DNA of 20,805 nt from an uncultured Candidatus Saccharibacteria bacterium (GTDB taxonomy: Bacteria; Patescibacteriota; Minisyncoccia; Phycocordibacterales; Phycocordibacteraceae), in NCBI GenBank assembly GCA_964359685.1, contig CAYHUW010000006.1, forward strand, positions 1-20,805. Direction: 5' to 3'. The position numbers were made by a program, and so were the translations under genes. Shown piece after piece: positions 1-13,815 of this stretch; the stretch's first letter is position 1, and the number at the start of each line of letters is the position of its first letter. The notes beneath the pieces were generated by a model, which saw nothing but the letters and a program-made list of their open reading frames with translations, ran no database searches and had not been told where the DNA came from.

Positions 1-993
1 AATGGTAATTATTTTTATTTCCGGAGAATGCACTTTCTTCAGGCAGGCGTACAGGGTCGTCGTTTTTCCGGAGCCCGTGGGACCGGTATTCAGAAGCATG
101 CCGTTCGGCTTTCTGATTTCTTTTTCAACGAGCGCCCGCAGTTTCGGTTCCATACCCAAGCCCTCAAACGGAACCGAAATTGATTCAGGGTCCAAAAGAC
201 GCATAACAACGGTCTCTCCGTTTGCACCGGGGATGACCGACGTTCTGATTTCCACCTCCTTCTTATTCAGTTCCACCGAAAAACGTCCGTCCTGGGCGGC
301 GTCATGAACATTCAGTTTTAGTCCCGACAGCAGTTTGATACGCGACAGCAGCAGCGCGTGTGTTTCGTGGTCCATGGTCATGATGTCGTGCAGCACCCCG
401 TCCAGCCGGTAGCGCATCCGCACATTTTCCGCCTCGGTTTCAATATGAATGTCGGATGCATCCACGGCAAACGCTCCGGCGAGAACAACTTCAAGAATTT
501 TTGAAATGCGGTAGGCTTTTTTGAGAGAAGCCACTTCCGCAACCGAGGTCCGGATGTCCTCAACCGTTTTTATTTTTTCTATTGAGTTTGCGAGTTCTTC
601 GGAAGAAATGTCCAGCGCCCCCTCTTTGCTCTTCATTGCAAACGAAAGGTCTTTGTAGCGCTCCCATGCCCGCTCCAGGCTCGCGCGCGACACCATAAGC
701 TGTGTTACTTCGTAACCGTGCTCATTCAGGTCCGCCAGGACAGGGGGGAGTTCGGGATGGTTCGGTGAACGAACTCCGAGGGATATTTTTTTACCGACGA
801 TGTCAAAGGCCGCTACCTCGGCCTTACGGGCCTCAGCCTCATTTATCAGGCGGAGCGCGTCGGTGTTTATGGAGGAGCGGGTGAGGTCGCGGTAACTGAT
901 CCCGTACTTTGCCGACAACAGCTCGGCAAGCTCTTCTTCCTCCCGTCGCCGCAACTCCTCAAAATGCTGTTCGGTCTTGTCGGAAAGCGCCAT
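1..993 (-). CDS. pilB: Type IV pilus assembly / type II secretion ATPase (PilB/GspE family). First 331 codons only; the C-terminus runs off the left edge.
   Basis: Absent from the ORF track because it has no stop in the window. My reverse-strand translation from the ATG (complement of 991-993) reads MALSDKTEQHFEELRRREEEELAELLSAKYGISY...AVDASDIHIE...VRMRYRLDGVLHD...DGRFSV...IRTSVIPGANGETVVMRLLD...LLNTGPTGSGKTTTLYA. It contains the Walker A motif GPTGSGKTTT, and the frame stays open to position 1. Confidence 0.85.
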   Translation of the reverse strand, partial: MALSDKTEQHFEELRRREEEELAELLSAKYGISYRDLTRSSINTDALRLINEAEARKAEVAAFDIVGKKISLGVRSPNHPELPPVLADLNEHGYEVTQLMVSRASLERAWERYKDLSFAMKSKEGALDISSEELANSIEKIKTVEDIRTSVAEVASLKKAYRISKILEVVLAGAFAVDASDIHIETEAENVRMRYRLDGVLHDIMTMDHETHALLLSRIKLLSGLKLNVHDAAQDGRFSVELNKKEVEIRTSVIPGANGETVVMRLLDPESISVPFEGLGMEPKLRALVEKEIRKPNGMLLNTGPTGSGKTTTLYACLKKVHSPEIKIITI

Positions 994-1008
994 AGGCAAA
1001 ATGTTACC

Positions 1009-1446
1009 ATGGCGCGTATGGAGATGACGCTTGAGGATTTGGCGGATTTTGCGGGGCGCATCGTTCTGGAGCTTCCGCAGGAGGCAGGGGAGCGGGCGCA
1101 CGTTATCGGGCTCTCGGGGCCTTTGGGGGCGGGGAAGACGACGTTCGTGCAGATGCTTGCCAAAGAGCTCGGCGTAACGGACACCGTGCCGAGCCCGACA
1201 TTTACCCTGGTTCGTCCGTACAAAATTTTTCACCCCGCATTTAAAAAACTGATTCACGTTGACGCGTACCGCCTCTCGGAAAATGACACGGGCGGGATCG
1301 GCTGGTCCGAATACGAAAACGACCCCGAGAATTTGATTCTGGTGGAGTGGCCTGAACATCTGGGGAGCGAGGTTGCAAAACGTATCCCGACCATACGCAT
1401 GAACCTCGTTGACGAGACCCGCCGCGTAGTCACGCACTACGCGTAA
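1009..1446 (+). CDS. tsaE: tRNA threonylcarbamoyladenosine (t6A) biosynthesis ATPase TsaE (YjeE)
   Basis: Contains the P-loop GLSGPLGAGKTTFVQ, then SPTFTL, and the HVDAYRL / LVEWPE motifs typical of TsaE. Start 1009 is preferred over the track's 964, which would overlap the pilB start. CAAAAT at 997-1002 lies 6 nt upstream of the 1009 ATG. Confidence 0.85.
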   Translation: MARMEMTLEDLADFAGRIVLELPQEAGERAHVIGLSGPLGAGKTTFVQMLAKELGVTDTVPSPTFTLVRPYKIFHPAFKKLIHVDAYRLSENDTGGIGWSEYENDPENLILVEWPEHLGSEVAKRIPTIRMNLVDETRRVVTHYA

Positions 1447-1453
1447 TTTCTGT

Positions 1454-3859
1454 ATGGCAAAAAAGGAACGCGAAACCCTGGTTCTCCTTGATACGCACGC
1501 GATTATTCATCGTGCGTACCACGCGCTCCCCGAACTTACGTCGCCGTCAGGCGAGCCCGTCGGTGCGCTGTACGGACTTTCAACGATGCTGATGAAAATA
1601 GTGAAGGAGATGAAGCCGGACCACGTCATCGCGGCGTTTGATCTCCCTGGGGCGACCCACAGGCACGACGTATATAAAGAGTACAAAGCGAAACGCCCCA
1701 AGACGGACGATGCTCTGGTTGAACAGATCAAGCGCGCCCGCGACGTCCTCTCGGCGTTCGGGATTCCTCTGTATGAATCACCCGGGTTTGAGGCGGATGA
1801 CGTTATCGGGACAATCGCGGAAACGGCGAAAAAGAATTTCAACGTTATTATCGCCTCCGGCGACATGGACACGCTCCAGTTGGTTGACGGTGAACGGGTG
1901 CGTGTTTTTACGCTGAGGAAAGGCATTCAGGATACGGTTTTGTATGACGAACAGGCGGTTGTCAGCAGATTCGGGTTTCCCCCCGAACGCATTCCCGACT
2001 ACAAAGGATTCGCGGGCGACCCATCGGACAACATCATCGGCATTCCCGGCATCGGGGAAAAAACCGCAACTAATCTGATTCTCACTTTCGGTTCTATGGA
2101 AGGCGTGTACAAAGCATTGAAAAAATCCGACGACGCGCTTCTTAAAGCGGGCATCAAAGGGAAGGCCGCCGAGCTCATTAAGACGCATGAAGATGAGGCA
2201 GAGTTTTCAAAAGTGCTCGCGACCATACGGAAGGATGCCCCCATTACATTCGTTGAACCCGAGCGTACGTTTTTGGAAACGCTCAACGTAGAGAAAACGG
2301 TGGGGCTTATGACCGAACTTGGGTTTCGCTCGCTCGTTCCCCGGGTAAAAGCACTCGGCGGCGCCGAAGAAAAAAAAGCGGACGCGAACAAAGAAAAGGC
2401 CGACACCCCGCTTCGCTCCACGCTTTTCGCGCCCGCTTTAAGCGCCGACGAGGAAGCGCTTCTCGCGGAGGCGCGGGTCATGCTGTGGCTCACGCAGTCC
2501 GAACTTACCAATCCGAATCTTGAAGACGTTCTGAATAACACAAAGTCAAAAACGCTCGCGGAAGCGCATGAAAAACTGCTCACACTTGTAAAAAAAGAAA
2601 AACTGGAACGAGTCTGGGGAGAAATTGAAAAACCGCTGATTCCGGTTATAGACGCGATTAACCGCCACGGGGTCATGATTGACGCCGCATATCTGCGATC
2701 CCTCGGCGCGGAGTACCACAAAGAACTTGATTCTCTTTCGGCAAAAATTTATGCGGAAGCAGGCGGGGACTTTACCATCACTTCCCCCAAGCAACTCGGC
2801 GGCGTTCTGTTTGAGAAGTGGGGGGTGGGGCAGGAGCCGGGGAAGCGACAGAAAAAAACCGCGACGGGGCAGATTTCCACCCGCGAGTCGGAACTCGTAA
2901 AACTGAAAGGGGAGCATGCGATTATAGATTTGATTCTCGCGCACCGCGAACTCCAGAAGCTTCTCTCAACGTACATAGACGCCATACCGCCTCTTTTGGA
3001 CCCGGACGGGCGTTTGCACACCACGTTTGTCCAGACGGGGGCCGCCACGGGCCGCCTGTCTTCACAGAATCCGAACCTGCAGAACATTCCGATAAAAACG
3101 GAACTCGGACGCCGTATCAGAACCGCATTCGTCGCGCCTCCGGGAAACAGGCTTCTCTCGTTTGACTACTCGCAGATAGAGTTGCGGCTTGCGGCGTTTC
3201 TTTCGGGGGATGCGAAACTTACGGAGATTTTTAAACGCGGGGAAGACGTGCATTCGGCCGTCGCAGCCGAAGTGTTTGGTGTCCCTCAGTCCGAAGTTAC
3301 GTATGACATGCGCAGGAGCGCAAAGGTAATCAATTTCGGCATTCTCTACGGCATGGGGGTCAATGCGCTCCGTGAAAGCCTGGGAACGGAAAGGAAAGAA
3401 GCGCAGGATTTTTATAACCGCTACTTTGAAACATTCAAAACGCTTGCCGAATACATGCAGAAAACCAGGAGCTCGGCGGCGCGCCTCGGCTACACGACGA
3501 CGTATTTCGGCAGGAAACGCTACTTCCCGGGCATTCGCTCAAAAATTCCGTACGTACGTGCATCAGCCGAACGCATGGCAATCAATGCGCCCCTCCAGGG
3601 GACGCAGTCTGACATCATCAAAATCGCGATGACACGAATTCATGACATGTTTCGGGACAAGTACCCCGGCCGGGCGGCGATTGTGCTTCAGATCCACGAC
3701 GAGTTGATATTTGAAGTGAAAGCCGAAGATGTTGCGGGGGTTGCCGCGGACGTGCGTGGGATTATGGAGGGAGTTCTCAGTCCTGAAGAGTTGCACGGGA
3801 TTCCGGTTCTGGTTTCTGGCGAAGCGGGGCAGAATTGGGGAGACATGCACAACATATAA
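1454..3859 (+). CDS. polA: DNA polymerase I (5'-nuclease domain plus family A polymerase domain; 3'-5' exonuclease domain reduced or absent)
   Basis: 801 aa. The N-terminus resembles a 5'-3' exonuclease (LLDTHAIIHRAYHAL, GFEADDVIGT, GIPGIGEKTA). Polymerase motif A is DYSQIELRLAA, motif B is RRSAKVINFGILYGM and motif C is QIHDELIFE. Confidence 0.95.
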   Translation: MAKKERETLVLLDTHAIIHRAYHALPELTSPSGEPVGALYGLSTMLMKIVKEMKPDHVIAAFDLPGATHRHDVYKEYKAKRPKTDDALVEQIKRARDVLSAFGIPLYESPGFEADDVIGTIAETAKKNFNVIIASGDMDTLQLVDGERVRVFTLRKGIQDTVLYDEQAVVSRFGFPPERIPDYKGFAGDPSDNIIGIPGIGEKTATNLILTFGSMEGVYKALKKSDDALLKAGIKGKAAELIKTHEDEAEFSKVLATIRKDAPITFVEPERTFLETLNVEKTVGLMTELGFRSLVPRVKALGGAEEKKADANKEKADTPLRSTLFAPALSADEEALLAEARVMLWLTQSELTNPNLEDVLNNTKSKTLAEAHEKLLTLVKKEKLERVWGEIEKPLIPVIDAINRHGVMIDAAYLRSLGAEYHKELDSLSAKIYAEAGGDFTITSPKQLGGVLFEKWGVGQEPGKRQKKTATGQISTRESELVKLKGEHAIIDLILAHRELQKLLSTYIDAIPPLLDPDGRLHTTFVQTGAATGRLSSQNPNLQNIPIKTELGRRIRTAFVAPPGNRLLSFDYSQIELRLAAFLSGDAKLTEIFKRGEDVHSAVAAEVFGVPQSEVTYDMRRSAKVINFGILYGMGVNALRESLGTERKEAQDFYNRYFETFKTLAEYMQKTRSSAARLGYTTTYFGRKRYFPGIRSKIPYVRASAERMAINAPLQGTQSDIIKIAMTRIHDMFRDKYPGRAAIVLQIHDELIFEVKAEDVAGVAADVRGIMEGVLSPEELHGIPVLVSGEAGQNWGDMHNI

Positions 3860-3862
3860 CTC

Positions 3863-4552
3863 ATGCTGTACGTACTTGTCGGTAGTGATTTTGTCAAAAT
3901 AAAAAAGCGAATCGCGGAGATTGCAAAAGGGTTTGAGCTTGTGCGGTTTGGAGAAGCGGCGGAAGCATTTGCGGGTGCACCCGCCAAGCTCGGGGCGAGC
4001 GGTCTTTTTTCTCCGAAAGTGGCGCTCCATTTGGATAAGCCGTTGGAAGACGCGGACGCGAAAGCATTGGTACTGGAGCATGCGAAAGCGTTTGCGAACT
4101 CTGAAACGCCGGTAATACTGACCGCGTCCGCTCTTGATGCCGAGACGAAAAAGAAAATTCCTAAAAATGCATCCGTAGAAACGTTTGAAGAAAAAACGGA
4201 AGGTGAGGGCGCTTCGCAAAGTACGTTTGCGCTTACGGACGCGTATGTGAAAGGCGATAGAAAACAGACATGGGTTTTGTACCGGGAATTTATTGAAAGC
4301 GGCGCTTCGGCCGAAGAGCTGCACGGCATTCTTTCCTGGCAGGTACGCGCTCTGGTTCTGGCGTCAAAAACAAAGAGCGCAACCGAGGCGGGGCTGAAGC
4401 CGTTTGTGTACACAAAAGCAAAATCCGCACTCACCAGAATGAACGTACATCCGGAAGAAATTTCCCGCGAGCTCGTTTCTCTGTATCATCGGTCCCGCAT
4501 GGGGCAGGGGAGCCTGGAGGATCTACTGGAGATATTTCTGTTGAAGAAATAA
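3863..4552 (+). CDS. Short DNA polymerase III delta subunit (HolA)-like protein
   Basis: 229 aa, starting 4 nt after the polA stop. The C-terminal half (FALTDAYVKGDRKQTWVLYREFIESGASAEELHGILSWQVRALVLASK...) follows the HolA domain III pattern F.L.DA...G....A...L...G..P..IL..L..Q.R.L. It is much shorter than E. coli HolA. Confidence 0.5.
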   Translation: MLYVLVGSDFVKIKKRIAEIAKGFELVRFGEAAEAFAGAPAKLGASGLFSPKVALHLDKPLEDADAKALVLEHAKAFANSETPVILTASALDAETKKKIPKNASVETFEEKTEGEGASQSTFALTDAYVKGDRKQTWVLYREFIESGASAEELHGILSWQVRALVLASKTKSATEAGLKPFVYTKAKSALTRMNVHPEEISRELVSLYHRSRMGQGSLEDLLEIFLLKK

Positions 4553-4570
4553 TCCTTTTGAAATCGGTAA

Positions 4571-4598
4571 TTGACTGTTGTTCCCAAACGGGTAAGAT
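4571..4598 (+). promoter_or_regulatory. Putative sigma70-type promoter TTGACT-N16-TAAGAT, placed for a leaderless transcript of ORF 4605
   Basis: TTGACT lies at 4571-4576 and TAAGAT at 4593-4598. The ATG at 4605 is exactly 6 nt after the -10 hexamer. Confidence 0.5.
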
Positions 4599-4604
4599 TT
4601 ATTT

Positions 4605-4943
4605 ATGAGTGACGGAGGGATAAAAGTCGAGCAATTTCAGATACCGCAAAGCGACCCGCTGACGTTTGCAACTCAAAATCGAGAGGAAATGGAAGCGCTG
4701 ACGGCAGGTCTCTTGGCGCTCGTGCAGGAAAATAACGATGGGCGTACGCATTTTGGAGGAGCAGTAAACCGCATCCGTGGCGACGATATGACGGTCGAAG
4801 CCATCATGATTAAGGGTCTTTTGGCCAAGAAGAACGGGCGATTCCCGGGGTCACTCTTGGGGGGTTTGATGCTTGGGCAAGCTCCTGAGACGAACGTAGT
4901 TCCATTTACCGGACGCAGGAAAAGGAATCCGCGTTCGGAGTAA
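4605..4943 (+). CDS. Hypothetical protein (112 aa), no family recognised
   Basis: An ATG ORF with a promoter-like signal directly upstream and no competing gene on the other strand. No recognisable motif or TM segment. Confidence 0.5.
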   Translation: MSDGGIKVEQFQIPQSDPLTFATQNREEMEALTAGLLALVQENNDGRTHFGGAVNRIRGDDMTVEAIMIKGLLAKKNGRFPGSLLGGLMLGQAPETNVVPFTGRRKRNPRSE

Positions 4944-4955
4944 CGAGGCCGCACA

Positions 4956-5089
4956 TGGTCACAACTCTCGGTTCGCCGCCGCTCACCTCGGTTGCCGACC
5001 CCGACTCACGGTCTCGCGTGACGCTCGACATCGTTCCGTCTCGCACATGTAAACAAAAACAGCCCGCAGGGGCTGTGTTTTGATTCATG
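4956..5089 (-). repeat. Copy 1 of a conserved tRNA-abutting non-coding module
   Basis: Alignable by eye with 10480-10631 and with the reverse complement of 17291-17428. Shared blocks are TGGTCAC..CAACTCTCG, TCGGTTGCCGACCCCGACTC (4988-5007) and ACATCGTTCCGTCT (5028-5041), followed by a terminal hairpin. The strand given is that of the abutting tRNA; the transcribed strand is unknown. Confidence 0.75.
5059..5076. terminator. Bidirectional intrinsic-terminator-like hairpin between ORF 4605-4943 and tRNA-Lys
   Basis: ACAGCCC-gcag-GGGCTGT is a 7-bp stem. It is flanked by an A run on the 5' side and GTTTTG on the 3' side, so a T run follows the stem on both strands. Confidence 0.6.
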
Positions 5090-5162
5090 TGCGCCCACTT
5101 GGACTCGAACCAAGGACCTTCTCCTTAAAAGGGAGCCGCTCTACCGACTGAGCTATGGGCGC
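5090..5162 (-). tRNA. tRNA-Lys (anticodon UUU)
   Basis: The reverse complement folds as a cloverleaf: gcgccca ta gctc agtcggta gagc g gctcc CTTTTAA ggaga aggtc cttgg ttcgagt ccaag tgggcgc a. 73 nt, no encoded CCA. Confidence 0.9.
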
Positions 5163-5237
5163 AAATCCTGCCTCTCAAGTACACCTTTCGGGGCTGGTTC
5201 AGGGATTATGCGCCAAAAACCTGGTTTTTTCCAGTCT

Positions 5238-5582
5238 TTAGTACGGTAAATCAAACGCCAGCCCGCCGGGGCCGTTTACCAGAAGGAATGCAAGAATCGC
5301 AAGCGTCAGAAGCAGCGTTGCGCGAGTGCCGAAAACCGACTCATGTTTGGCGCGCTTGAACGAGATAATCGCCTGTACGCCCGCCGCAACAACGGCTACC
5401 TGGGTAAAAAGTCCGACTGCAATCAAAAGTCCGCATACACCGGAAGCGATTGAGAGGTATTTCCACTTCTTTACCTTCCACAGTGCGCGCGCATCAAAGA
5501 GGAAAAGTACCGCAACCGCCGCACGCAGGATAATAACCGCGAGGAAACTCAGGAAAAAGAGACCTGGGAAAACGCTTTCCAT
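5238..5582 (-). CDS. Small polytopic membrane protein, DoxX-like C-terminus
   Basis: 114 aa, almost entirely hydrophobic, with about 4 predicted TM segments. It ends in LLVNGPGGLAFD, which resembles the GPGxxSLD end of DoxX-family proteins. TATAGT lies 6 nt upstream of its ATG. Confidence 0.45.
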   Translation of the reverse strand: MESVFPGLFFLSFLAVIILRAAVAVLFLFDARALWKVKKWKYLSIASGVCGLLIAVGLFTQVAVVAAGVQAIISFKRAKHESVFGTRATLLLTLAILAFLLVNGPGGLAFDLPY

Positions 5583-5588
5583 GGTGGC

Positions 5589-5594
5589 ACTATA
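5589..5594 (-). promoter_or_regulatory. -10-like TATAGT (minus strand) 6 nt upstream of the ATG at 5582, within a 17-bp divergent intergenic region
   Basis: The reverse complement of 5580-5596 reads gaTATAGTgccaccATG. The same A/T core read on the + strand (CACTAT, 5588-5593) lies 6 nt upstream of the trmH-like ATG at 5600. Confidence 0.45.
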
Positions 5595-5599
5595 TCACG

Positions 5600-6085
5600 A
5601 TGGCTCAGCGGGGAATCACACTCATTCTTCACGATATTCGGAGTTCGGAAAACGTCGGTTCTATATTCAGAACCGCGGATGCCGCCGGGGTTTCAAAAAT
5701 CTATCTGACGGGCTACACCCCCGCACCGCTTGATCGGTTTAAAAGAAAAAATACAAAACTCGCCAAGGCGGCTTTGGGCGCGGAAGATGTCGTTCCTTGG
5801 GAGCGCGCGGAGGATGTTGTTCCGCTTCTAGAACGCCTGAAAAGCGAAGGCGTACAGATTATTGCCGTTGAGCAGGATCCGCGGGCACTCCCGTATACGA
5901 GTGTACGGGGGGAGGGAGTTGTTGCGTATATTTTCGGTAACGAAGTCACAGGACTTACAAAAAATATTTTAGATGCAGCCGACTCGGTTGCTGAAATCCC
6001 GATGCACGGGAAGAAAGAGTCACTGAATGTTTCTGTCGCGGCGGGCATCATACTTTTCCACGCACGGGACTCCCAAAATCATTGA
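5600..6085 (+). CDS. SpoU/TrmH-family RNA 2'-O-ribose methyltransferase (SPOUT)
   Basis: 161 aa. Contains LILHDIRSSENVGSIFRTADAAGV, FGNEVTGL and PMHGKKESLNVSVAAGIILF, which are the three SpoU motifs. Confidence 0.85.
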   Translation: MAQRGITLILHDIRSSENVGSIFRTADAAGVSKIYLTGYTPAPLDRFKRKNTKLAKAALGAEDVVPWERAEDVVPLLERLKSEGVQIIAVEQDPRALPYTSVRGEGVVAYIFGNEVTGLTKNILDAADSVAEIPMHGKKESLNVSVAAGIILFHARDSQNH

Positions 6086-6120
6086 CGCGAAAGGGGATAG
6101 GAATTATATTTTCCACTTCA

Positions 6121-6357
6121 ATGGATACTATTTCAAGTCGCCTGAGCGCGCTTATTGAAGGCGGAGCGAGAATTCGCACCGAACGTTTTGCCGCGATAGA
6201 AAAACTTCGCGAGCTCGGCTTCATCAAAGACGGGAAGCTCCACCGGCCTCCCGCTCAACCGAGAGCAGTCAGCACGCATACCAAAAAGGGGCTCCTGCTT
6301 TTCAGCGGGCGGCAAAGCGAAGACCCGCGCACGGTTCTGAAACGTCTTGAAGATTAA
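6121..6357 (+). CDS. Hypothetical small protein (78 aa from the ATG at 6121; the track starts at TTG 6082)
   Basis: An open frame with no recognised motif. Its stop overlaps the stop of the convergent gene 6354-7328. Confidence 0.3.
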   Translation: MDTISSRLSALIEGGARIRTERFAAIEKLRELGFIKDGKLHRPPAQPRAVSTHTKKGLLLFSGRQSEDPRTVLKRLED

Positions 6358-7328
6358 TACGTTATAGAGTCAATGAGTTTTCCGTTTTCGTCCAAGAGGC
6401 GGATTTGGTCGTGTGTATTGCCCCAGAGTTCCTGCTGACGGTTAAGGAAAATGCGCCATTCGTTTTTGTAGAAATCGGGGTCGTTTCTGTGTGCGGTCAC
6501 ACATCCGTTGTAGGTTAAGTCGTTCAAAATAAAGTCGCGGCACTGCGTCCCTACGTCAAACGGAATCGCTTCGGAAAAAATTTCGCACGCGCTTACCCGG
6601 TCCATGAAATCTATGCAGGCGACGTTCGTGCCGGTTTTCTGAGGGTTTTTGAGCGCTTCATCTTCCGGGTCCGGGCAATCCCGATCCAGTCCGGGGCTGA
6701 AGTCCTGGCGCTGTTCAAAGTATCCGGTGCAGGTATTGATACGGAATGAGGAGCCGTTCGGCGAACGCCCGGTAGTGATGTATATGACAGCGTCGGGACC
6801 TACAGAAACCGGTGTCTCCGTACTCACTCCGCCCAGAAAAGGAATTTGTGCGGCGGAACCGATCGGAGCTTTTATTGCGGTTGTTTTACTCTCCAGCACC
6901 CATCCTGTTACGGTGATGTTCCGTTCGAGGTCCCGGGTTGTTTCAATGCGCACGTACTCCTCATTCGGGTTGCCCGCGGTCGCCGTTTCGCGGTACAAGT
7001 CCACGTATTTCGCGTACGGAGAATCCGCGCCGGTGTCGGATCCGCCACCGGGCGAGTTGAAGAAATAATCCAGGAGCGATCTGCCGTCCCTCTCAATGTC
7101 CTCTATTTGAGCGGAGTCGGCTTCAAATGAACTGCCCTGGACTCTGCCGAGCCCCGTTTCTACGCTCGGCGCCTGCGGCGGTTTTAAAAACGGTCCTGCG
7201 TGGGAAAGCGGTCTGGTCGGCCCTCCCGTTGAGACCCACAGAATCCCGAGCAAGACCAGAAACAAAATAAAAACAATGAGCGTACCGAACGCACCGATTC
7301 CCCTCAACGCTTTTCGGGGTGTCTGCAT
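6354..7328 (-). CDS. N-terminally membrane-anchored extracellular protein with a lamin-tail-domain-like fold interrupted by a Cys-rich insert
   Basis: Has a TM anchor (GAFGTLIVFILFLVLLGILWV). NEEYVRIETT...NITVTGWVLES...VSVGPDAVIYITTG and the C-terminal HDQIRLLDENGKLIDSITY match the LTD pattern (NE[FY]VE..N....[LV]SGW.L ... D.[IV].L.D..G..[IV]D.[IV].Y). An insert of roughly 100 aa contains 7 Cys. Start 7328 (ATG) is preferred over TTG 7364 because TACACT lies 6 nt upstream of it. Confidence 0.5.
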   Translation of the reverse strand: MQTPRKALRGIGAFGTLIVFILFLVLLGILWVSTGGPTRPLSHAGPFLKPPQAPSVETGLGRVQGSSFEADSAQIEDIERDGRSLLDYFFNSPGGGSDTGADSPYAKYVDLYRETATAGNPNEEYVRIETTRDLERNITVTGWVLESKTTAIKAPIGSAAQIPFLGGVSTETPVSVGPDAVIYITTGRSPNGSSFRINTCTGYFEQRQDFSPGLDRDCPDPEDEALKNPQKTGTNVACIDFMDRVSACEIFSEAIPFDVGTQCRDFILNDLTYNGCVTAHRNDPDFYKNEWRIFLNRQQELWGNTHDQIRLLDENGKLIDSITY

Positions 7329-10818: not shown

Positions 10819-11277
10819 CTAAAGCCCTATCGTCTTTGCCACCCGGTCCACCAGGGTATCAAGCTGGTCTTCCTCGGGGATATTGTGATTTTTCAACTCC
10901 ATTCTGACGGCACGGAAGTCTACTCCTTCAAGCGGAGCTTTTATGACACCGATGAGAGTTTTGCTTTCAATTGTTAAATGGCGGGGCTCGTCTTCCGATA
11001 TCGCGAAGCGGGTGATTTTTTCAAACGGAACCATATCTTTCCCGACCATAAATCCGCTCTCCGTTATGCTGTATGTATGTTTCGAGGGGCGCGCTGAGCC
11101 GACGAGCATGACGGTAAATCCGCCGATGACGCAGATGACCGCGAAAAGGTAGTTTTGGAGAATTACCGAAGCGATTGCGAGTCCGCCCGCCGCGATACCC
11201 ACCGCGTAGTACCAGGGGCGCTCTTTCTCCGTGCGTTCGTGTTCGTGCGCCTGCCATCTGACTACGATATGTTCCAT
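10819..11277 (-). CDS. Small 2-TM membrane protein with a cytoplasmic PH-like C-terminal part (WxAxE...WY N-terminal motif)
   Basis: 152 aa from the internal ATG at 11277: MEHIVVRWQAHEHERTEKERPWYYAVGIAAGGLAIASVIL..LFAVICVIGGFTVMLVG. A perfect TATAAT lies 6 nt upstream. The 283-aa form in the track would run antisense through the neighbouring gene. Confidence 0.65.
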   Translation of the reverse strand: MEHIVVRWQAHEHERTEKERPWYYAVGIAAGGLAIASVILQNYLFAVICVIGGFTVMLVGSARPSKHTYSITESGFMVGKDMVPFEKITRFAISEDEPRHLTIESKTLIGVIKAPLEGVDFRAVRMELKNHNIPEEDQLDTLVDRVAKTIGL

Positions 11278-11283
11278 GCTTTT

Positions 11284-11289
11284 ATTATA
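11284..11289 (-). promoter_or_regulatory. Consensus -10 TATAAT (minus strand) 6 nt upstream of the ATG at 11277; overlaps a + strand TATTAT (11283-11288) facing the AOX-like gene
   Basis: The reverse complement of 11275-11292 reads gggTATAATaaaagcATG. Confidence 0.55.
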
Positions 11290-11331
11290 CCCCTGCGGTG
11301 AGCGGAAAATCCTGATACCATACCTGTCTGT

Positions 11332-12039
11332 ATGGAACATGCGGACCCGAAGATGGAAGAGCTGGTCGCGAAACTGAACGACGAACGGGAACTCGCCGCG
11401 TTCAAAGCCAAGCATGACGGGTATGTTCCGGGGGCGGTTCCGCGATTCTTGGGGGCGCTTCTGGTGTTCTGCGGCAACGCCGTGTACGGAGTCAAACCGT
11501 CGTACCTGAAATTTCGCGCGGTTGAGGTTATCGCGCGCGTTCCGTACCACTCGTGGGAATCGGCGGCGTTCACGTTTCTCACTATGTTTTTCATGAATGA
11601 GAAAAAAGCCCTCGCACTCTCCAACGTGGCGTGGTTCGGCAGACTCGCGAGCGACAACGAAACAATGCACGTGGTCGTCATTTCCCAGCTCGCGAAGAAA
11701 GCCGAAAAATCAAACTGGTTCGTGCACACACTGATCCCGATGCTGTTCGCGTTCTTTTATTTCTGGGCGGCCTACTGGCTCTACCTTTTCAGTCACAAAG
11801 CGGCTCTGGAACTCAACTACCTGTTAGAACAGCACGCGTTTGACCAGTACTCGCAGTTTCTGAAGGAAAATGCTTCGGAGCTCCGGGAAAAGAGAATGGA
11901 GAGCGATTACCTCGCGTGGTACGGGAGAAAAGCGGAGACGGAATATGATTTTTTCCTCTCGGTCAGGAACGACGAAATCATACACCGCAACAATTCAATT
12001 ACTCACATTGAAACGGGGGTGGCTAAGAAAGTCGTTTGA
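11332..12039 (+). CDS. Alternative oxidase / plastid terminal oxidase (AOX/PTOX)-family membrane-bound di-iron carboxylate quinol oxidase homolog
   Basis: 235 aa. It runs collinear with PTOX/AOX landmarks: AVEVIARVPYHSW (cf. LETIARVPYF), ASDNETMHVVV (cf. NE[RM]MHL, ExxH), SNWFVHTLIPMLFAFFYFWAAYWLYLFS...ELNYLLEQHAFDQYSQFLK (cf. LEEEA..HY/TY) and VRNDEIIHRNNS (cf. R.DEA.H, the second ExxH). This gives the E / ExxH / E / ExxH ligand pattern. Confidence 0.8.
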   Translation: MEHADPKMEELVAKLNDERELAAFKAKHDGYVPGAVPRFLGALLVFCGNAVYGVKPSYLKFRAVEVIARVPYHSWESAAFTFLTMFFMNEKKALALSNVAWFGRLASDNETMHVVVISQLAKKAEKSNWFVHTLIPMLFAFFYFWAAYWLYLFSHKAALELNYLLEQHAFDQYSQFLKENASELREKRMESDYLAWYGRKAETEYDFFLSVRNDEIIHRNNSITHIETGVAKKVV

Positions 12040-12367
12040 AATACGCGGCGACCTTTTCCACGTCAGCCATTATGGCGGATTTGAGTGCGGCGTCGTCGGC
12101 GAAGTCCGCGTGGTCGCGGACTTTTTCCAACAGTGAGAATACCGCTTCTTTTCCGTAGAGGTCTCCGGAAAAATCCAGCAGGTACGCTTCCAGAAGTTTC
12201 CGCCCCGCATCCCCGAAGATAGCCGCGCGGAACTCCGTACCGTCAACAAGGACGGTCCCCGCGTAGATACCCGTTACGACGTCCGCAATCCGCATGTTTG
12301 CGGTGGGGAATCCTAAGCCCGAAGCTTTTTTTGACCCCTCAATGATGATTCCTCGGTACGTCGCCAT
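12023..12367 (-). CDS. Monofunctional riboflavin kinase (RibF C-terminal-domain type)
   Basis: 114 aa. Contains GLGFPTANM, GIYAG, and LLEAYLLDFSGDLYGKEA...LLEKVRDHADFADDAALKSAIMADV, which matches the RibF kinase domain. Its 3' end overlaps the convergent AOX-like gene by 17 nt. Confidence 0.8.
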   Translation of the reverse strand: MATYRGIIIEGSKKASGLGFPTANMRIADVVTGIYAGTVLVDGTEFRAAIFGDAGRKLLEAYLLDFSGDLYGKEAVFSLLEKVRDHADFADDAALKSAIMADVEKVAAYFKRLS

Positions 12368-12373
12368 AGATAT

Positions 12374-13726
12374 TTACGGAGCAAGGCGCGAGAACCGCCA
12401 CGTACGGCCTGTTTTTTTATAGGAAAGACGTGTATGCAGACGCCCTGAGTGCCCCTGTTCCCAGAACTCAAATTCGCGCGGGGTGAGACGGTACCCGCCC
12501 CAGTGCGGGGGGAGGGGGATTTTCTTCCCGTGGAACTTCCCACGCATTTTCCGCATTTCCTTTTCCAGAGTTTCGGTATCCCGGAGATCCGCACTTTGCA
12601 CAGATGCCCATGCGGAGAGCTGACTCTCTCTCGGGCGGCCGGCGAAATAGGCCGCGGATTCTTTTTGGGGGACGCGCGTCACCTCTCCCTCAACGCGCAC
12701 CTGGCGTCCGACGGAGTTCCAATAAAAAAGAACGGCCGCGTTAGGGTTTTCCGCAAGCTCTTTTGATTTTCTGCTTAGATAATTTGTGAAGAATGTAAAA
12801 CCTTTCGCACCGTGCTTCCTCAGAAACACTACCCGTGCCGACGGATGACCGGAGTGCGTCGCCGTCGCAAGAATCATCGCGTTCGGCTGGGGTTCGTGTG
12901 CGGCTTCCGTATACCATTTTTCAAATTGCCTGAAAGGGTTTCTCAAAACGTTGCCGTCGGGGAGTTCCGGGGTTTCGGCAAGTACTTTGGCGTAGCGGCG
13001 CACCGTTTCCGCAAATCCGAACTTCAGCGCGTCAGCGGTCAGTTCATGCCCGATTGACGCTTCCGAGACGAACGCGGTTATTTTTTCAAGAAGGGGGGGA
13101 AGGTTCTTCAGATTCAGGTCGTGTCCTATGTGTACGCGCAGACCGAGCGCATGCGCGCGTTTTGCGGTGGCGGTTATTTTTTTTAATTCCCCCGCATGTT
13201 TTTCTTTCTTGAATAATTCTGCATACGCGCCCGTATACATCTCTATCCCGTCCGCTCCGAGTTTCTTTGCGTTTTTAAATGCGGCAAAATCCGGGTCAAC
13301 GAAAAGGATGATCCGCGTATTCAGTTTTCGCAATTTTGCGAATACGGGTTTCAAAATGCGCATCTGTTCCGGCGTCAGGTCCCAGCCTTTGTCCGATGTG
13401 AACGCGGTCGCGGAGTCCGGCACCAACGTCGTTTGTTCGGGGCGTATTGAGGAGACAATTTTTAAAAACCGTTCATCAGGATACCCTTCTATATTCAGTT
13501 CTTTGCGGGGACGAAGCGGGCGCATTCGTCGTGCAGTTTCCGTAACGTCGCTCTTCCTCACATGGCGCTCGTCTGATCTCGGATGAAGCGTAATCCCGTG
13601 CGCCCCCGCTTCAATGGCAAGGTCAACGAAATCAAGCACGTTCGGAATATTTGTATGGCGCGCGTTTCTCAAAAGCGCCACTTTGTTCAGGTTGACGCTT
13701 AGCCGCGATTGCACACGCTTTTTCAT
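12374..13726 (-). CDS. Fusion protein: pyridoxine 5'-phosphate synthase (PdxJ, N-terminal) and pyridoxamine/pyridoxine 5'-phosphate oxidase (PdxH, C-terminal)
   Basis: 450 aa from the ATG at 13726. The PdxJ part contains LSVNLNKVALLRNAR, GITLHPRSDERH, TLVPD and IGHDLN..ASIGHEL. The PdxH part contains ATATHSGHPSARVVFLR, FTFFTNYLSRKSKEL, RQVRVEG, YFAGRPRESQLSAWAS, PPHWGGYRL and EFWEQG..RLHTRLSY...RLAP. It is a single uninterrupted frame. Confidence 0.85.
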   Translation of the reverse strand: MKKRVQSRLSVNLNKVALLRNARHTNIPNVLDFVDLAIEAGAHGITLHPRSDERHVRKSDVTETARRMRPLRPRKELNIEGYPDERFLKIVSSIRPEQTTLVPDSATAFTSDKGWDLTPEQMRILKPVFAKLRKLNTRIILFVDPDFAAFKNAKKLGADGIEMYTGAYAELFKKEKHAGELKKITATAKRAHALGLRVHIGHDLNLKNLPPLLEKITAFVSEASIGHELTADALKFGFAETVRRYAKVLAETPELPDGNVLRNPFRQFEKWYTEAAHEPQPNAMILATATHSGHPSARVVFLRKHGAKGFTFFTNYLSRKSKELAENPNAAVLFYWNSVGRQVRVEGEVTRVPQKESAAYFAGRPRESQLSAWASVQSADLRDTETLEKEMRKMRGKFHGKKIPLPPHWGGYRLTPREFEFWEQGHSGRLHTRLSYKKTGRTWRFSRLAP

Positions 13727-13728
13727 TG

Positions 13729-13815
13729 CGGAGGAGGTGAGATTCGAACTCACGGTCCAGTTTCCCGGACGCCGCATTTCAAGTGCGGTGCGTTAGACCA
13801 CTCTGCCACTCCTCC
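13729..13815 (-). tRNA. tRNA-Ser (anticodon UGA), class II with a long variable arm
   Basis: The reverse complement folds as ggaggag tg gca gagtggtctaa cgc a ccgca CTTGAAA tgcgg, then a variable arm cgtccgggaaactggacc, then gtgag ttcgaat ctcac ctcctcc g. 87 nt, no CCA. Confidence 0.9.

Follow-up and report, generated by a model that had tools for sequence, protein, structure and literature searches.

What would a bacterium with no evident respiratory chain do with a membrane oxidase of the kind that passes electrons from quinols to oxygen? The question is raised by a 20,805-nucleotide stretch of DNA from an uncultured Candidatus Saccharibacteria bacterium (GenBank assembly GCA_964359685.1, contig CAYHUW010000006.1, positions 1 to 20,805 of the forward strand; hereafter the window), in which an intact plus-strand gene at 11332..12039 encodes a 235-amino-acid di-iron oxidase of the family that unites the alternative oxidase (AOX) with the plastid terminal oxidase (PTOX). 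An earlier note, made from the letters of the window without database searches, had recognised the gene as AOX/PTOX-type, had taken the host to be a Patescibacteria-type organism expected to lack a respiratory chain and quinone synthesis, and had left the substrate open. We consider it probable that this member of the AOX/PTOX superfamily works as a quinol:O2 oxidase that needs no heme, pumps no protons and re-oxidises a pool of scavenged quinone.

Active site, fold and phylogenetic placement of the oxidase

The four landmark motifs and the hydrophobic region listed in the earlier note are all present in the translation of the open reading frame (ORF; protein P0001). Residues 64-221 match the Pfam AOX family (PF01786) with 42.8 bits (cut-off 22.7; E 6e-11), and the search of the host genome with this model gave the same result; this was the sole Pfam family matched, no other ferritin-like family appearing in the profile search, and no NCBIfam model matches the protein. 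Four helices, all encoded on the plus strand, carry the iron ligands of the family in the expected sequence E, ExxH, E, ExxH. Motif 1 (AVEVIARVPYH, residues 63-73, 11518..11550) carries ligand E65 (11524-11526) and aligns with LETVAGVPG of the trypanosomal alternative oxidase (TAO), while motif 2 (NETMH, residues 109-113, 11656..11670) carries E110 and H113 and aligns with NERMH. Motif 3 (LEQHAFDQY, residues 165-173, 11824..11850) holds ligand E166, the PTOX-type H168 and, seven residues past the glutamate, the catalytic tyrosine Y173, aligning with LEEEAVITY, and motif 4 (RNDEIIH, residues 212-218, 11965..11985) supplies E215 and H218 and aligns with RADEAEH. All six ligands thus align with those of TAO, and together with Y173, N109 and D214 they are invariant among 60 members of the query's clade (mean column identity 61%) and stay so in a 62-sequence alignment to which canonical AOX and PTOX sequences were added, where A169 is also invariant across the superfamily. 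We take Y173 to be the equivalent of TAO Tyr220. The clade additionally has invariant residues of its own, including W75 and H73, and a conserved N-terminal extension of 34 residues.

Two hydrophobic stretches, residues 35-52 (11434..11487, plus strand) and 129-153 (11716..11790, plus strand), are helical in the structural model and are candidates for the membrane-binding helices that correspond to TAO helices alpha-1 and alpha-4; the sequence FAFFYFWAAYWLYLF (residues 139-153) lies within the second. Among the 60 clade members, G41 and G53 are invariant in the region of the first helix and P37, L40, L44 and V45 nearly so, and P136, F139, Y143, W145 and Y148 are invariant in the second. Through these two conserved helices the protein may associate with the membrane in a monotopic manner. 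Compared with its orthologues, the gene has 0.13-0.24 non-synonymous differences per site (pN) while synonymous sites are saturated, and it is therefore under purifying selection.

The predicted structure (AlphaFold2; pLDDT 89, pTM 0.87) matches the AOX fold, a four-helix di-iron bundle with two further long helices. In a Foldseek search of the PDB the top 14 matches were all TAO chains (TM-score 0.67, probability 1.0, 14-16% identity), followed after a gap by bacterioferritin (0.41) and COQ7 (0.39). This gap, together with the exclusive Pfam match, rules out an assignment to COQ7, MiaE or another ferritin-like di-iron family. TAO (PDB 3VV9, 3VVA, 5ZDP and 9KUN) shares the fold and all four iron-binding motifs with the query and differs from it in its length (329 versus 235 residues) and in having glutamate, in LEEEA, where the query has histidine. 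A superfamily profile built from the wider alignment also matched TAO in the PDB by sequence (E 3e-14), with the four motifs (LET, NERMH, LEEEA..Y and RADEAEH) in register. Among viral structures the best Foldseek matches were compact proteins of about 200 residues (query-normalised TM-score 0.68-0.71, target-normalised 0.76-0.83, 22-25% identity), the top one being the unnamed H8ZJQ8 (0.71) and a named one being a Synechococcus phage plastoquinol terminal oxidase (0.68).

These viral proteins belong to the best structural matches of the query, and the resemblance to PTOX/IMMUTANS, including the compact cyanobacterial and cyanophage forms, extends to Pfam family, the six ligands, the tyrosine and small size. 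It also includes ARVPY after the first glutamate and ExHA in the third motif, variants which are of PTOX type and which point to a closer resemblance to PTOX than to AOX proper. Unlike PTOX, the query falls in a separate clade, has tryptophan for tyrosine at position 75 and bears the conserved N-terminal extension; its hosts moreover lack quinone-synthesis genes, make no plastoquinone and are presumably non-photosynthetic, as judged for the present host from its 748-kb genome of candidate phyla radiation (CPR) type, in which photosynthesis genes were not searched for.

A full HMMER scan of 1.84 billion representative sequences recovered 253 relatives. Twelve of these had E < 1e-30 (lowest 140.7 bits), after which scores dropped stepwise from about 112 to 88 bits, mostly for short fragments, with full-length proteins from outside the clade at about 80 bits or below. 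The tree resolved three groups: clade A, which contains the query (SH-aLRT 95), its sister clade B (SH-aLRT 96), and a large group C of eukaryotic and PTOX-type sequences, separated from A and B together by 2.25 substitutions per site (SH-aLRT 100); the stems of clades A and B measure about 1.1 each. The phylogeny that the earlier note had called for thus puts the query in a distinct clade outside the group that holds PTOX-type sequences. Few leaves could be named, and in clade B just one, P0176 from a member of the Paludibacteraceae (Bacteroidota), which is titled 'alternative oxidase'. The proteins of clade B are the nearest relatives outside the patescibacterial clade: they group with clade A (SH-aLRT 100), have the same tryptophan 75 together with all of the ligands, and are 218-294 residues long, differing from the query in sequence to the extent of 21-30% identity.

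A word-indexed search retrieved 981 proteins, of which the best 120 share 56-87% identity with the query; where these 120 are named, almost all come from metagenome-assembled genomes (MAGs) of Patescibacteria, Parcubacteria, Minisyncoccia or Nomurabacteria, one being labelled Bacillota, and several carry the automatic names 'alternative oxidase' or 'ubiquinol oxidase'. The clade is thus already auto-annotated in public records. A pattern scan over one genome per species found relatives in 221 genomes, almost all of them Patescibacteria. When genomes were sampled evenly, the Pfam AOX model picked up the family in 8 out of 401 for the phylum and in 14 out of 291 for the class, counts that are lower bounds given that clade members score just 21-44 bits on this model. 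Judged from these sequence comparisons, the oxidase represents a divergent clade apart from canonical AOX and PTOX that is almost confined to Patescibacteria. A different type occurs in the host's order as well: the protein encoded at G211:C1:85352-85936 is a canonical AOX that scores 227 bits on the Pfam model, compared with about 40 for the query clade, so at least two AOX types exist in this order, probably through separate acquisitions.

Patescibacteria have been described as lacking oxygen reductases, and the survey that concluded an ancestral absence searched for heme-copper and bd oxidases only (PMC7507113). Two later papers on oxygen adaptation in the CPR, one of them PMC9166423, list other oxidases and leave the AOX/PTOX family unmentioned. 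Our literature search, which paired alternative oxidase, PTOX and AOX with Patescibacteria and CPR class names, found, among the papers listed, none linking the family to this phylum. If hundreds of species do share a conserved oxidase that relies on iron only, a route of O2 use has been overlooked.

Host genome and co-occurrence with quinone reducers

The host genome (G000) is a MAG of 747,667 bp in 83 contigs, 91.8% complete and with a GC content of 51.5%. The contig of the oxidase carries genes typical of Patescibacteria, among them those for a PilB-type ATPase, PolA, a SpoU methylase, a Mur ligase, RuvA, riboflavin kinase, PdxJ-PdxH, PilM/PilN, UppS and a pseudouridine synthase, and close relatives bear the labels Patescibacteria, Parcubacteria or Paceibacteria, in agreement with the host type proposed in the earlier note. 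The genome inventory likewise agrees with the supposed lack of a respiratory chain and quinone synthesis: searches of G000 recovered no heme-copper oxidase (COX1), cytochrome bd, NuoH, UbiA/MenA prenyltransferase or polyprenyl synthase, with the reservation that absence from a MAG of this completeness is no proof. An F-type ATPase is present. The Pyr_redox_2 proteins of G000 are a thioredoxin-reductase/AhpF-like enzyme and a flavoprotein of the aminoacetone oxidase family, with no NDH-2 among them, and VKOR was not found in this genome.

The question of the substrate, which had been left open, is narrower now because the same genome encodes quinone-reducing enzymes. The first is a class-2 dihydroorotate dehydrogenase (DHODH; L004, G000:C4, locus 1354-2418) that adjoins pyrF, has a hydrophobic N-terminal domain and a serine catalytic base in an SSPNT motif, and passes two 'quinone-dependent' equivalog cut-offs (452 versus 267 bits and 403 versus 200). 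The second is a BdbC-type DsbB with CGLC and a second cysteine pair, directly preceded by a gene whose thioredoxin-like, membrane-anchored product bears a CPHC motif. A possible third electron donor is a GlcD/YdiJ-like FAD-linked dehydrogenase of 555 amino acids, which is divergent from a PfkB kinase gene (L091, G000:C57, locus 385-3014) on a different contig from the oxidase.

We searched 50 other AOX-carrying genomes of 0.5-1.1 Mb for the same components. Cytochrome bd occurs in three of them and COX1 in one; a UbiA-family gene occurs in three, one of these lying beside COX1 and probably encoding heme O synthase. The oxidase is consequently the only recognisable membrane O2 reductase in 46 of the 50 carriers, and 47 have no quinone prenyltransferase of the UbiA family. 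DsbB was detected in 24 carriers, VKOR in 25, and either of the two in 44. A sample of 291 genomes of the host's class gave a similar pattern, in that the 14 AOX-positive genomes included 10 with DsbB, 3 with VKOR (4 when a weak hit is counted) and 13 with either, compared with 44, 118 and 144, respectively, among the 277 AOX-negative genomes. Fisher tests in which relatives were treated as independent returned p = 0.002 for DsbB or VKOR and p = 1e-5 for DsbB alone. In genus g424, the two AOX carriers have DsbB and the AOX-less member has VKOR instead.

Proposed role and alternative explanations

On the reading that we favour, the oxidase would sit on the cytoplasmic face of the membrane, held by its two hydrophobic helices, and would accept electrons in pairs from a membrane quinol, using them at the di-iron centre to reduce O2 to water with neither heme nor proton pumping. 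The quinone would presumably be acquired from a host or the environment along with other lipids, because the cell cannot make one. The pool would be reduced by the Ser-type class-2 DHODH in the course of pyrimidine synthesis, by DsbB and its CPHC thioredoxin-like partner in extracytoplasmic disulfide formation, and possibly also by the GlcD-like dehydrogenase, and the oxidase would act as the sole electron outlet that lets DsbB and class-2 DHODH turn over, with a lowering of O2 as a side benefit. Such an arrangement has functional analogues. In bloodstream trypanosomes the chain is minimal and consists of a single dehydrogenase, ubiquinone and AOX. In Escherichia coli, electrons from DsbA travel through DsbB to ubiquinone or menaquinone, and the resulting quinol is re-oxidised by a terminal oxidase. 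The host resembles E. coli in having a CPHC thioredoxin-like protein, DsbB and a single candidate quinol oxidase, and it differs in that E. coli uses heme oxidases (bo3 and bd) and its own quinones whereas the host has a di-iron oxidase and encodes no quinone synthesis; the coupling in the host is inferred from co-occurrence. Microsporidia with reduced mitosomes, highly reduced and host-dependent organisms without oxidative phosphorylation, are also reported to have kept an AOX (PMC2820529), in their case a eukaryotic and canonical one.

A broader proposal, which we advance tentatively and regard as somewhat doubtful, is that in ultra-small bacteria the oxidase supplies the missing last reaction of a 'quinone loop' that works without heme, in which DsbB or VKOR (and here class-2 DHODH) reduce a quinone stolen from the host and O2 re-oxidises it. 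The loop would answer how DsbB, VKOR and class-2 DHODH run with no respiratory chain behind them, and if true it would mean that some supposedly strictly fermentative CPR bacteria need O2 for protein folding and nucleotide synthesis rather than for energy. What is new here is the inventory of quinone reducers in the host genome, a negative test of the DHODH link and a positive association with DsbB/VKOR, the last uncorrected for shared ancestry.

Several observations weigh against a dedicated link to quinone reducers or against a quinol substrate. Roughly every second genome of the class that lacks AOX still encodes DsbB or VKOR (144/277, 52%), so these proteins manage without the oxidase; the host's whole order has DsbB with or without AOX; related genomes are not independent, so the Fisher p values overstate the association; and with Pfam detection as weak as 21-44 bits some AOX-negative genomes may be false negatives. 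No quinone reductase is a conserved neighbour of the oxidase in the 75 loci compared. The query shares at most 30% identity with any sequence outside clade A in the 62-sequence alignment (21-28% with the canonical AOX/PTOX rows), and 14-16% with TAO, which places the clade far from characterised enzymes, and a clade-only profile found no AOX in the PDB. Class-2 DHODH, finally, is not enriched, occurring in 8 of the 50 carriers as against 66 of 393 genomes in the phylum background, and in one of the eight AOX carriers of the phylum sample. Since these frequencies match the background, we reject as a general rule the idea that the oxidase exists to serve class-2 DHODH.

The connection between DHODH and the oxidase may instead be confined to the host lineage, since the DHODH that G000 has in common with its nearest AOX-carrying relatives is unusually canonical, at about 400 bits. 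In G000 and the carriers with the most similar oxidases (G401, G403, G406, G407, G408 and G429), DHODH scores are 390-410 bits, compared with 213-325 bits for most other patescibacterial DHODHs above the cut-off in the phylum sample and 351-401 for three, which suggests that the host and the closest carriers have a lineage-specific, more canonical enzyme. The congener G143, whose genome is 100% complete, is without AOX and without class-2 DHODH. Some of these DHODH matches hold an in-frame stop.

Other explanations of the gene have to be set against this evidence. The oxidase might be a pure oxygen scavenger that keeps O2 low for oxygen-sensitive fermentative enzymes and accepts electrons from any reduced quinone, without a dedicated link to DsbB, VKOR or DHODH, a role already proposed for CPR terminal oxidases (PMC9166423). 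Its patchy distribution (8/401 in the phylum, 14/291 in the class) would suit an accessory, habitat-linked trait. The 75 loci show no conserved operon partner, and some carriers come, by their isolate names (e.g. H41-bin015_1), from Hainich well H41, which is described as oxic. A scavenger would nevertheless still need a quinone donor, for which the only recognisable candidates are DHODH, DsbB/VKOR and perhaps the GlcD-like enzyme, and DsbB or VKOR is present in 44/50 and 13/14 carriers as against 52% of non-carriers. We judge pure scavenging unlikely, and it overlaps with quinone re-oxidation rather than excluding it. The AOX scaffold might also have been turned to different chemistry, either with a non-quinone lipophilic reductant as substrate or as a hydroxylase or desaturase, in the manner of other di-iron enzymes of the ferritin-like kind. 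In favour of this are the 2.25 substitutions per site (SH-aLRT 100) that part clades A and B from canonical AOX/PTOX, the clade's own W75, H73 and N-terminal extension, the lack of quinone synthesis in its hosts, and the failure of the clade-only profile to find TAO by sequence. A PDB search with the single sequence returned no TAO either: the hydrophobic helix gave rise to its only hits, spurious ones to a proton-gated ion channel. Both outcomes reflect the divergence of the clade. Yet all AOX-critical residues are retained (the six ligands, the tyrosine, and the asparagine and aspartate flanking ligands), conservation extends to both hydrophobic helices, which in TAO make up the membrane and quinol-entry side, COQ7, a true di-iron hydroxylase, is a far poorer structural match (TM-score 0.39), and carriers nearly always encode other quinone-dependent enzymes, making a quinone pool likely. 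We therefore hold a change of chemistry to be quite improbable.

That the gene is not a working host gene at all, the contig being mis-binned or the gene a recent foreign passenger or decaying relic, is very hard to believe. The genome is a MAG in 83 contigs, and the complete congener G143 lacks the gene. Against these points, however, the contig bears typical CPR genes (PolA, RuvA, Mur ligase, PilB/M/N, UppS), the GC content of the gene (52.7%) fits that of the genome, and relatives occur in 221 species genomes that are almost all patescibacterial. A Patescibacteria MAG has the order SpoU-Mur-RuvA-...-AOX-RibK-PdxH-...-PilM as well, on an 831-kb contig, so the host contig is no stray, and the unbroken reading frame shows strong purifying selection.

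Gene neighbourhood of the oxidase

The earlier note had found the genomic context suggestive. The genes that it named are indeed there, and riboflavin kinase, PdxH and the two-helix membrane protein prove to be synteny of the closest relatives (13-14 of 75 loci) rather than a functional module. Upstream, on the minus strand, a divergent gene (10819..11277) encodes a protein with two transmembrane helices that shares 82% identity with its syntenic counterpart in the relative L007 and gave a weak DUF5673 match (20 bits, below the cut-off); its divergent orientation and two helices had been described correctly, and with 152 residues it is not the small ORF that had been supposed. It appears to be a local neighbour of the oxidase rather than a demonstrated partner. 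A 78-residue ORF near this gene is in the wrong frame. A 283-residue minus-strand ORF (10819-11670) begins within the oxidase gene and shares frame and stop with the 152-residue gene, its part upstream of 11277 being spurious. A length-greedy ORF caller lost the oxidase gene to longer overlapping spurious ORFs of this sort in 6 of 75 loci, the window included.

The divergent intergenic region spans 54 bp (11278..11331) and contains overlapping -10-like hexamers read from the sequence: the plus strand has TATTAT at 11283-11288 and the minus strand has TATAAT at 11289-11284, the latter ending 6 nt before the ATG at 11277. The back-to-back -10 region previously described is thus present as hexamers, while a scan for consensus promoters and terminators found no full -35/-10 pair and no terminator in the spacer; the spacer may nonetheless act as a promoter. 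Downstream, two convergent genes lie on the minus strand, as stated before and now confirmed by Pfam. Riboflavin kinase (12023..12367; Flavokinase, 73.6 bits) overlaps the 3' end of the oxidase gene by 17 bp (12023-12039), an overlap that leaves no room for terminators, and none are predicted. It is followed by a 467-residue fusion of PdxJ and PdxH (PNP synthase and PNP oxidase; 12374..13777; Pfam PdxJ, PNPOx_N and PNP_phzG_C), which includes an O2-using FMN enzyme. In L007, PdxH is a separate protein of 216 residues, with no PdxJ gene called beside it.

Across the 75 loci, the neighbours that recur are the two-helix membrane protein (14 loci), riboflavin kinase (13), a PduO-type adenosyltransferase (11) and EamA (9), as well as RuvA, SIMPL and an aldo-keto reductase. 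Each is confined to sub-lineages, riboflavin kinase occurring only among the closest relatives, and no conserved operon partner was found in these loci. Two individual arrangements were also observed. In the single genome G629 (L093, G629:C15:20500-27500, locus 2240-5472), a tight same-strand cluster comprises the AOX-like gene, a 240-residue membrane protein, an SfLAP-like membrane protein, an ATP-cone protein, VKOR and DoxX, the last two within 1.8 kb of the oxidase. In L008 (locus 4882-6738), a relative with 58% identity, a gap of 22 bp separates the oxidase gene from the end of a preceding same-strand gene for a PQQ-type glucose/sorbosone dehydrogenase (GSDH), and AhpC is encoded nearby.

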